Positions 4,942 through 6,228 of a DNA stretch of 64,000 nt are shown piece after piece. Position 1 is the stretch's first letter; each line of letters starts with the position of its first letter. Made by a program: the position numbers and the translations under genes. Source of the stretch: Thermoplasmata archaeon. Lineage in GTDB: Archaea; Thermoplasmatota; Thermoplasmata; GCA-020350865. The stretch lies in NCBI GenBank assembly GCA_020348445.1, contig CP070751.1:2149186-2213185 (forward strand), given 5' to 3'. Below the pieces are notes generated by a model. It had not been told where the DNA came from and searched no databases. It worked only from the letters and a program-made list of their open reading frames with translations.

Positions 4942-6228
4942 CTATCCACCATGGGATACATTTACCGTGATTGCAACCTCGGCAATATATAGATTCCTAT
5001 CTTCAGCCCTTATTTTTATTTGATAGGTGCCGTTTGTAAGTAATTCTGTATCAAAGTAAGTGAGGTAAACGAGCTGATCATAATGGGTTTCGTTTACATG
5101 GGTCCAATCAACACTCCCGTTCCGAAAGAAAAACTGCACTTCATGAACATTATTCTCCACATCTGCAACCACTGCATAAACAGGGATGACACCGTCGATT
5201 TCATCACCATCGCGGGGTTCTAAAAATCTCGGCTCTGGTATATCTGGAGTATTATCTATAACGAACAGTTCCGACATCCCTTCAAAAGTCCTTCCCTTGG
5301 TATCTGTGAAGTTCACTTTGATATGATAGGTACCCTCATTGTGTAACCTTGTGTCAAATGCGAGGTGGTAACTGTTTTCAGAATAAGTGCCAACATTTCC
5401 AAGGTAATTCCATCCCAGACTAGTCTGACCCAAATAGAACCTCAATCCTTCGGCGGTAATCCTCCCGTCTAAGACAGTAATATTCGCAAAAACATTCATT
5501 TGATCCCTGAAAATCGGTGTTCCCAGTTGGTTTTTATACAACTCTCCGAAAAGCAGGACGTCATCCACACTTGAATGCTTCGAATTCTCATTTTGGTTTT
5601 TCGGGACAAACGGGCCTCCTATGAGCATGCTCAAAAGTACAGCAATGGTTACAAAGGCTATGATTTTTCTATATGAATTCTTTGGCTCTTCTCGCAAGGG
5701 TTTGACCTCCCCCTCATTATCTTCCGTTTGAAAAGTGGGCTTTGGTGGTTTGGGAGGAGACGAGAAAGAATCAGGAATCTTCTCCTTTTCATCGGAAAAA
5801 ACATGCACCTGGTCATCTTCGAGTTGGATCACATTTTCGTTTTTGTCAAGTGTAAAAAATGCCAATTCCTCCTTCTTGGGATCCACTATCAAGGCCGTTA
5901 CATAGTCTGAGAACTGCTGAAAGTTCCTTTGGGTGATGATATCGATTGGAGACATGAACAAACCAAAACCTGGATGGGAATGGTACCAACCCATTATCCT
6001 TCCCTGAATCTCCCCGGATAGTATCCTGTCTGTTATTTCTGCTATGCTTTTGGGATGCAACGAGGCCATTGTGGATTGCGAATCCTGCTCCCCGGTAATG
6101 GCCTCCTCAATTAAAATTGTATGATTCTCAGCATATCCTACGAGGAGTCCTATTATCTCGAAATCAGTGGCCTTGGCCTTCTCCATAATACTGTCAAGAA
6201 CCTTTTTCGGGATGCTGACATAAAACAT
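4942..6228 (-). CDS. Membrane-anchored Rpn11-like JAB/MPN+ (JAMM) isopeptidase with extracellular Ig-like domains
   Basis: FEIIGLLVG (catalytic Glu) and [21 protein letters not shown] (JAMM motif, about 5930-5990); TM [19 protein letters not shown] preceded by YRK; C-terminal Ig repeat FDT.[15 protein letters not shown]. Confidence 0.88.
   Translation of the reverse strand: [428 protein letters not shown]

Follow-up and report, generated by a model that had tools for sequence, protein, structure and literature searches.

Archaeal ubiquitin systems have been studied as forerunners of the eukaryotic one, and the sole characterised archaeal Rpn11 homolog is, to our knowledge, a soluble enzyme. 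A locus in the genome of a Thermoplasmata archaeon raises the question of why a deubiquitinase of this type should be joined to a membrane helix and to domains outside the cell. The locus lies in a 64,000-nucleotide stretch of GenBank assembly GCA_020348445.1 (contig CP070751.1, positions 2,149,186 to 2,213,185; hereafter the window, numbered from its first letter), where one gene at 4942-6228 encodes a JAB domain, a linker, a predicted transmembrane (TM) segment and two immunoglobulin-like (Ig-like) domains in a single protein, which is called the JAB-TM-Ig protein here. An earlier note on the window had read this protein as a receptor that couples an external cue to the maturation or removal of ubiquitin-like (Ubl) proteins. 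The analysis described below establishes that the fusion is real and belongs to a widespread class, and it makes likely a role in ubiquitin maturation and deubiquitination at the inner membrane face, with the ectodomain fixed in the envelope.

Architecture of the JAB-TM-Ig gene

The open reading frame (ORF) is present at 4942-6228 as the earlier note had stated, with the correction that it lies on the minus strand; read on the plus strand, the same interval contains many stops. The gene and its parts are as follows.

4942..6228, minus strand: JAB-linker-TM-Ig1-Ig2 gene (P0001), 428 aa, with an ATG start (ORF list and translation)
4942-4944, minus strand: stop codon of the JAB-TM-Ig gene
5761..6228, minus strand: predicted cytoplasmic JAB/MPN+ domain, residues 1-156 (Pfam JAB, PDB sequence search, Foldseek, VIA-align)
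6157..6159, minus strand: codon of Glu24, the catalytic glutamate of the JAMM motif (invariant in homologs)
5941..5982, minus strand: JAMM zinc motif H83-S-H85-x7-S93-x2-D96 (read from the translation)
5665..5760, minus strand: Pro- and Lys/Arg-rich linker, residues 157-188, ending Y-R-K
5605..5664, minus strand: predicted TM helix (signal-anchor), residues 189-208 (hydrophobicity, insertion energy)
5254..5571, minus strand: predicted extracellular Ig-like domain 1, residues 220-325 (beta-sandwich in both models)
4945..5253, minus strand: predicted extracellular Ig-like domain 2 (Big_7), residues 326-428 (Pfam Big_7)

The 25-residue stretch that had been likened to the Rpn11 motif is found at residues 80-104 of the translation, and the order of JAB domain, Pro/charged linker, Y-R-K, TM segment and beta-rich part is as had been claimed, the last part being about 220 aa long and made of two beta-sandwiches. 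The MFYVSI start is conserved in homologs. Two AlphaFold2 models of the protein, which were built on 22 and 35 aligned homologs, agree on a confident MPN domain (1-156), a low-confidence region (163-217) and beta-sandwiches at 220-325 and 332-424. Among the 22 homologs, mean pairwise identity is 0.69 in the JAB core, 0.47 and 0.45 in the two Ig-like domains, 0.36 in the TM segment and 0.35 in the linker.

The fusion in relatives and in a second sample

About 40 full-length homologs (426-447 aa, 40-58% identity, 100% coverage) were obtained from a set of 5.8 billion proteins; they all keep every part of the JAB-linker-TM-Ig1-Ig2 layout, and some of them are named as coming from Thermoplasmata metagenome-assembled genomes (MAGs). 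Among 300 sampled genomes of the class, full-length matches are confined to the window's genus, where they were found in three of the four other species, and two MAGs named 'uncultured Thermoplasmata archaeon' carry the gene as well. The common JAB proteins of about 212 aa in other families of the class belong to a different, soluble subfamily. Furthermore, contigs from a second sediment sample tile the JAB-TM-Ig gene with zero differences, and one of them (5295-5850, no differences) spans the JAB domain, linker, TM segment and Ig-like domain 1. A frameshift, which the earlier note had raised as a possible refutation, or an assembly artefact is ruled out by the full-length homologs together with these contigs across the junctions, and the fusion is real, far beyond chance. 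The public runs listed with this stretch comprise only sediment and mangrove metagenome DNA, with no RNA run among them.

Catalytic JAB domain

Residues 4-107 match Pfam JAB (PF01398; E 1.1e-10, 41.8 bits against a curated cut-off of 22.5), and E24, H83, H85, S93 and D96 form a complete JAMM motif, all five residues of which are invariant in the 22 as well as in the 35 homologs. The nearest solved protein by sequence is CsRpn11 of Candidatus Caldiarchaeum subterraneum (6fjv, E 1.4e-17 in the PDB sequence search), followed by Rpn11 (E about 1e-13) and CSN5 (about 3e-13). By fold, Foldseek placed the CsRpn11 entries first, with 6fju as the top match, and VIA-align gave Z scores of 19.3 for yeast Rpn11 (root-mean-square deviation (rmsd) 2.5 over 144 residues), 18.3 for CsRpn11, which is tied with it, and 16.5 for CSN5. 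The JAB domain itself was modelled at a predicted local distance difference test (pLDDT) of mostly 70-93. The NCBIfam desampylase model reached only 27 bits on this domain, against a cut-off of 130.

The Rpn11-like identity proposed earlier is thus borne out, with CsRpn11 and then eukaryotic Rpn11 and CSN5 as the best solved relatives by sequence and fold; the label is justified by the PDB ranking, the fold matches, the intact JAMM motif and the low desampylase score, and the domain is an Rpn11-type JAMM rather than a JAMM1/JAMM2 desampylase. It is most likely an active zinc isopeptidase, and we infer by analogy that it acts on the neighbouring ubiquitin.

Residues 14-118 align to residues 21-125 of CsRpn11 without gaps, so the insertion is of equal length. 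The stretch between strand 37-45 and helix 59-70, which we take to be the position of Ins-1, the part of such enzymes that places the ubiquitin tail, includes a segment (49-54) that is flexible in both AlphaFold2 models. In unliganded CsRpn11, the Ins-1 segment has likewise been described as flexible (PMC6043591). The genome holds only one other PF01398 gene, at a separate locus.

Membrane segment and topology

The linker contains 7-11 Pro and 5-9 Lys/Arg residues in 19 of the 22 homologs and is acidic in the other three, and its pLDDT is below 50 in both models. Directly behind it, the 20 residues 189-208 are the sole strongly hydrophobic stretch of the JAB-TM-Ig protein. In each of the 22 homologs the most hydrophobic 19-mer falls at this position, and its Kyte-Doolittle mean is 2.4-3.3 (2.37 in the window's protein). 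According to the scale of Hessa et al. (2005), on which the values given here are approximate, the summed insertion energy is at or below zero in 35/35 homologs, the next best stretch standing at +8 to +10 in the five homologs for which it was printed. The letters of the segment are poorly conserved (0.36), yet its hydrophobicity is retained, and it is flanked by a net positive charge on the N-terminal side in most homologs and by a charge near zero or negative on the C-terminal side.

N-glycosylation sequons are distributed unevenly about the helix, with 327 observed beyond it against 97 expected from composition (3.4-fold) and 18 observed before it against 24 expected, while the nine sequon columns shared by half or more of the sequences all lie in the C-terminal part. 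This asymmetry is the strongest evidence that the sequences give on topology. ATP-dependent ubiquitin activation is cytoplasmic, and the JAB-TM-Ig protein is therefore expected to be oriented N-in/C-out. It has no N-terminal signal peptide, the N-terminus being the JAB domain itself. Hydrophobicity, flank charge and sequons together support the single membrane-spanning segment and the orientation that had been proposed, that is, a predicted single-pass type II (N-in/C-out) membrane protein.

Ectodomain

Ig-like domain 1 (220-325) is a beta-sandwich with a pLDDT of about 70-88 and a weak, sub-threshold match to Pfam Big_13, and it carries conserved sequons at 249, 278, 284, 306 and 312. Ig-like domain 2 contains a Pfam Big_7 match (PF17957) at residues 334-406 (E 3.3e-07, 31.3 bits against a curated cut-off of 24.1) and has a pLDDT of 86-97 in the second model. 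In VIA-align comparisons, domain 2 resembles the Ig-like module of the Thermotoga mannanase 6tn6 (Z 14.7, rmsd 1.4, 91 residues), and the tandem of both domains resembles the Fn3-like modules of CbhA, 3pdd (Z 12.8). The C-terminal sequon excess supports the claim that the Ig-like domains are extracellular, and the ectodomain is predicted to be N-glycosylated outside the cell.

The last unit had also been said to resemble the Ig repeats of a 2737-aa surface protein in the window, which carries 10 Big_7 stretches; this likeness is real and modest (BLASTP E 3e-07, 24% identity, many repeats matched). An exhaustive profile search gave giant surface proteins, with up to 44 repeat stretches, as the best non-family matches of the ectodomain. 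Big_7 repeats are otherwise the material of such giant proteins, which also supports an outside location. The modelled pairing of two ectodomain copies (residues 212-428) scored 0.21 against a mark of 0.42, a value that speaks neither for nor against self-association. At its very end, the family has a conserved His/Asn-Gly-Gly with the consensus ILHGG (residues 426-428 in P0001, and homologs), which, being extracellular, should not serve as an E1 substrate.

A wider class of JAB-TM-ectodomain proteins

When 1.84 billion representatives were searched exhaustively with a hidden Markov model, many proteins of 320-760 aa that begin with a JAB domain (JAB-first proteins) were matched through the linker and TM segment. 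A TM-grade segment, nearly always a single one, directly follows the JAB domain in 44 of the 50 JAB-first relatives examined, its N-terminal flank is net positive in most of the 50, and behind it stand 150-550 residues of varied beta-rich domains (four PKD, Big_7, CarboxypepD_reg-like or unassigned). The search for similar architectures that the earlier note had suggested thus turned up JAB-TM-X proteins with varied ectodomains, and the layout is not unique. As for its premise that Rpn11-type enzymes are soluble, this is correct for the characterised ones and does not extend to these 44 close relatives.

A 522-aa form of the class (L017) is encoded in the order B-box membrane protein, JAB-TM-X, ubiquitin (..GGR), E2 and Ubl-E1, and another JAB-TM-X gene is likewise followed by a ubiquitin gene. 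Six loci of the Bathyarchaeia type, one of which is titled only 'uncultured archaeon', encode forms of 511-530 aa, with ubiquitin as the next gene in five of the six (L024, L025, L027-L029); the assignment to Bathyarchaeia comes from species-representative genomes, and the full order of JAB, ubiquitin, E2 and E1 was read in L017. Since a JAB-TM-ectodomain gene heads ubiquitin-E2-E1 operons in Bathyarchaeia, the window's protein is a member of a widespread class and not a one-off. The form with two Big_7-type domains (Big_7 x2) was seen only in one Thermoplasmata genus and metagenomic relatives.

All surveyed homologs from Aigarchaeota/Caldarchaeales, the group of CsRpn11, are without a TM segment, as are the three Asgard loci in the survey, and several homologs from Acidobacteriota, Armatimonadota and Thermoleophilia have a TM helix and a short tail. 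In the JAB-domain tree, the Big_7 x2 proteins fall in a 98/98 clade that is shared with a few soluble forms, and the type of ectodomain goes with the clade; with midpoint rooting only, the tree leaves gain versus loss of the anchor undecided. A soluble 240-aa form stands in the same ubiquitin-E2 context in a genome labelled Methanomassiliicoccales. Metagenomic forms that look tail-anchored (P0087, P0092) were not relied on, as they may be genes truncated at contig ends.

Ubiquitin operon and its neighbourhood

In the window, the JAB-TM-Ig gene is part of a block on the minus strand, whose other members are listed below.

7462..7935, minus strand: 157-aa protein with two TM segments and a CxxC...CxxC zinc ribbon at the C-terminus, with which the block starts (translation; no Pfam family)
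6653..7342, minus strand: Ubl-E2 fusion, 229 aa (Pfam UQ_con E 1e-16 and ubiquitin E 6.5e-05)
4652..4903, minus strand: ubiquitin-like protein, 83 aa, ending DIVGG-KDE (Pfam ubiquitin E 7.3e-09)
3644..4612, minus strand: E1-like ThiF adenylyltransferase, 322 aa (Pfam ThiF E 4.7e-54)
2974..3429, minus strand: 151-aa two-TM zinc-ribbon paralog, with which the block ends (weak match to the same NCBIfam model as 7462-7935)

The JAB gene is separated by 38 bp from the ubiquitin gene and the latter by 39 bp from the E1 gene, and the Ubl-E2 gene lies upstream of the JAB gene across a 424-bp gap. The 83-aa ubiquitin is the presumed substrate of the JAB domain. It is 81-87% identical among relatives of the window locus, and its tails after Gly-Gly differ in length and sequence, being KDE in the window and K, SD, VSG or KYGGSPATRI in relatives, a variability that is expected of a precursor needing to be trimmed. 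Relatives at 43-50% identity, one of which is a 4.2-Mb Thermoplasmata genome, have the order JAB-TM-Ig, ubiquitin, unfused E2 and E1, and membrane proteins with B-box zinc fingers (24.6 and 26.7 bits, the Pfam cut-off being 24.1) lie at the flanks of their operons.

The fused E2 is peculiar to the window's genome among the genomes examined, the E2 of relatives being unfused, 156-190 aa long and encoded between ubiquitin and E1. The N-terminal Ubl of the fusion aligns with the free ubiquitin, with A-A replacing G-G. Bacterial type I Bub operons also encode a Ubl-E2 fusion, which is cut by their JAB peptidase (PMC11601596). Much of this unusually long 424-bp gap between the Ubl-E2 and JAB genes is filled by a 72-bp tandem repeat (6411-6571, 2.2 copies, 88% matches), a weak second copy of which (75% identity) is found about 10 kb upstream of the window start; the repeat may be regulatory, or a mobile remnant marking a rearrangement that moved the E2.

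Membrane zinc-finger proteins bracket the operons in all lineages examined. In the window they are the two-TM zinc-ribbon paralogs (7462-7935 and 2974-3429), and multi-TM B-box proteins take this place in relatives (L002, 9148-10101 and 10184-10957) and in a Bathyarchaeia-type locus (L017, 74-868). These proteins are candidate ligase adaptors or non-RING E3s, or else candidate substrates. Just upstream of the JAB-TM-Ig gene, relatives encode a protein of about 320-330 aa (L002, 4921-5916; L001, 4985-5944), which in L002 has a signal peptide, Asp-rich calcium-binding-like repeats, a C-terminal TM anchor and a Lys-rich tail. In L002, genes for a PKD-domain protein and an FtsX-type permease of 1230 aa come before it. 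These upstream proteins are possible envelope partners; their genes are missing from the corresponding position in the window.

Housekeeping genes flank the block, namely Mmp4/MtxX, a methanogenesis marker 4 protein (2122-2874), and the flap endonuclease FEN1 (8161-9180), both above cut-off, together with a second ThiF-family E1 on the opposite strand (1333-2115). Possession of a methanogenesis marker is unusual for a Thermoplasmata genome, here a single contig of 5.16 Mb that marker counts put at only 82% completeness. Farther away, at 16820-20980, a 1386-aa protein is encoded with a CarboxypepD_reg-like domain in its long N-terminal part, two AAA domains, AAA lids and a C-terminal SAP motif; its gene overlaps a VWA-domain gene (20962-22386) and adjoins that of the 2737-aa Big_7 surface protein. 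As well, the same genome possesses a second Ubl locus outside the window (L003; G000:C1:2563174-2566518), which contains the C-terminal part of an E1, a 178-aa E2, a 401-aa JAB protein and a RING-like CxxC...H..C...CxxC finger protein. The 401-aa JAB protein has a Lys/Glu-rich N-terminus, a C-terminal zinc ribbon and no TM segment.

Proposed role and alternatives

The likely role of the JAB-TM-Ig protein is to mature pro-ubiquitin and to remove ubiquitin at the inner membrane face, with the ectodomain fixed in the envelope. The JAB domain would be held a few nanometres below the membrane by the Pro/Lys-rich linker and would cut the KDE tail off the ubiquitin precursor, exposing Gly-Gly for the neighbouring E1 and E2, and it would probably also strip ubiquitin from conjugates formed at the membrane. 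The Ig-like domains would fix the enzyme within or against a cell envelope built from the same Big_7 repeat type, and the anchor would thereby restrict ubiquitin maturation and removal to the membrane, the site of the zinc-finger membrane proteins of the operon. For CsRpn11, both precise cleavage of its precursor behind GG and deconjugation have been shown (PMC6043591, PMC5654768), and by analogy the window's JAB domain should carry out both KDE removal and deconjugation. The envelope-positioning role is favoured because the ectodomain is conserved but exchangeable and its closest relatives are envelope repeats.

Several observations weigh against this proposal. AlphaFold2 twice gave residues 163-217 as coil with a pLDDT of about 22 and no helix, the deeper 35-row alignment leaving the TM segment as coil in the refold, and the segment of the window's protein, which includes G-G-P, ranks lowest in the family for hydrophobicity, with an insertion sum of -0.12. 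Soluble forms occur in the same 98/98 JAB clade (the P0081 type of 240 aa, as well as the zinc-ribbon proteins P0079 and P0082), from which it follows that some lineages can do without the membrane anchor. The family must also have a role besides the trimming of precursors, since one Bathyarchaeia ubiquitin has GG as its very last residues. Finally, the part assigned to the ectodomain is one that we infer.

The failure of AlphaFold2 to build a helix in two runs, with very low confidence at 163-217, would suit a soluble multidomain JAB enzyme whose hydrophobic segment is not a membrane helix, yet this is very improbable given an insertion sum at or below zero at the same place in 35/35 homologs, a TM-grade segment in 44 of the 50 wider relatives despite unconserved sequence, a positively charged N-terminal flank, and sequons enriched 3.4-fold on the C-terminal side only. 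If the protein does span the membrane, it may be a receptor-like deubiquitinase, as the earlier note supposed, in which an external ligand or surface on the Ig-like domains shifts oligomer or conformation and switches the JAB domain on or off; with the ubiquitin precursor masked, an outside cue would then gate the whole conjugation pathway. Most relatives retain an extracellular part, of about 150-550 aa, whose type has been swapped several times, a pattern that suggests importance, the ectodomain is under purifying selection (mean identity 0.45-0.47 against 0.35 in the linker), and ubiquitin in the window's lineage is always tailed after GG, so that the JAB domain could be an on-switch. However, no link from ectodomain to catalysis was found, the linker, with its length, low conservation and predicted disorder, is a poor signal conduit, the ectodomain shows no ligand pocket or known sensor domain and consists of generic Ig/Fn3-like spacer modules of the kind found in surface proteins and glycosidases, and the same operon is run by soluble relatives. 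It is thus rather unlikely that this protein acts as a receptor or that an outside cue controls conjugation in this way, and we are equally doubtful that JAB-TM-ectodomain proteins in general are transmembrane switches in which ectodomain contact with envelope proteins, neighbouring cells or viruses gates ubiquitin conjugation. Simple tethering of the protein, in which the ectodomain would bind envelope components, accounts for the data no less well than ligand sensing.

The giant surface proteins (up to 44 repeat stretches) among the ectodomain's best non-family matches, the 10 Big_7 units of the window's 2737-aa protein, the membrane zinc-finger proteins flanking the operon and a membrane-embedded double-AAA protein 10 kb away could also point to envelope quality control resembling endoplasmic-reticulum-associated degradation. 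The ectodomain would then recognise unassembled or damaged envelope proteins, the ubiquitin machinery and zinc-finger proteins would tag the cytoplasmic portions of those envelope proteins to be extracted or degraded, and ubiquitin would be recycled by the JAB domain. This case is purely circumstantial, and the AAA gene lies outside the conserved neighbourhood in the relatives examined; we regard both the recognition and the tagging steps as unlikely. Bacterial Ubl-E1-E2-JAB operons are often defence systems (PMC11601596), and antiviral defence of the Bil, CBASS-Cap2-Cap3 or Bub kind, with the ectodomain sensing virus attachment, was considered in view of PADLOC matches for the JAB domain (generic JAB, E 5.5e-06) and the E1 (E1-E2 domain). 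These matches are generic and at domain level only, and ubiquitin, E2 and the zinc-ribbon proteins match nothing. The housekeeping flanks (FEN1, Mmp4/MtxX), the synteny between relatives at 43-50% identity and a ubiquitin that is 81-87% conserved, unlike fast-evolving defence components, make a defence function improbable. Positioning of the protease at the inner membrane face by an envelope-bound ectodomain thus remains the preferred explanation, and an archaeal ubiquitin system of this type probably works at the membrane.

Comparison with known systems and significance

CsRpn11 (PDB 6FJU, 6FJV, 6FNN, 6FNO) shares with the window's protein the complete JAMM motif, the lack of an Ins-2-sized insertion and a position beside genes for tailed ubiquitin, E1 and E2. 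It differs in being a soluble 202-aa protein with a C-terminal helix (PMC6043591), whereas the JAB domain of the window's protein is followed by a Pro/Lys linker, a TM helix and a predicted ectodomain of 220 residues, and the window's operon, unlike that of CsRpn11, has no RING protein and encodes membrane zinc-ribbon proteins instead. Eukaryotic Rpn11 (PSMD14) and CSN5 have the same MPN+ fold and catalytic motif. They work in soluble PCI complexes with an inactive MPN partner, and use Ins-2 and C-terminal helices for lid assembly (PMC6043591). The window's protein has no MPN- partner, Ins-2 or lid-assembly helices, and has a TM segment and an ectodomain instead; we know of no eukaryotic Rpn11 or CSN5 enzyme that spans the membrane. 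AMSH and AMSH-LP (STAMBP) are endosomal JAMM deubiquitinases that act at the membrane surface, and the AMSH sequence matches the window's JAB domain (E about 3e-06). However, AMSH reaches the membrane as a peripheral protein through ESCRT proteins, lacks both a TM helix and a luminal domain and owes its Lys63 specificity to Ins-2 (PMC6043591).

Among prokaryotic proteins, the Bathyarchaeia JAB-TM-X proteins (P0076-P0171; L017, L024-L030) have the same JAB subfamily, linker and single TM segment, but their ectodomains (about 315 aa of beta-rich sequence, four PKD, or CarboxypepD_reg-like) are unrelated to Big_7 tandems. The bacterial JAB peptidases BilC, Cap3 and BubCD are encoded with Ubl, E1 and E2 and trim precursors or conjugates (PMC11601596), but they are soluble or fused to E1 and stand in defence or mobile contexts. 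Some proteins from Acidobacteriota and Armatimonadota also have one TM segment after the JAB domain, but only 31-168 residues follow it and they form a separate, distant branch in the tree. Fuchs et al. linked an uncharacterised 'JAMM-3' group to Ub-E1-E2 operons, its architecture not being given. The literature searched yielded no description of a membrane-anchored Rpn11-like JAMM enzyme or of a ubiquitin operon in Thermoplasmata. What is new here is an integral-membrane, ectodomain-bearing form of a known enzyme type and operon, which is widespread in two archaeal phyla.

If ubiquitin is matured and removed by an integral membrane protein in these archaea, at least one branch of their ubiquitylation would have its place at the cell membrane. 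The locus, with one protease, ubiquitin, E1 and E2, would also offer a simple test system for the roles of ubiquitin before proteasome-coupled degradation, for which membrane-protein turnover, envelope surveillance and signalling are candidates. Should the protease prove to be regulated by the ectodomain, the family would represent a new type of transmembrane signalling, and such outside-in control of ubiquitylation would have no known counterpart in eukaryotes or bacteria.

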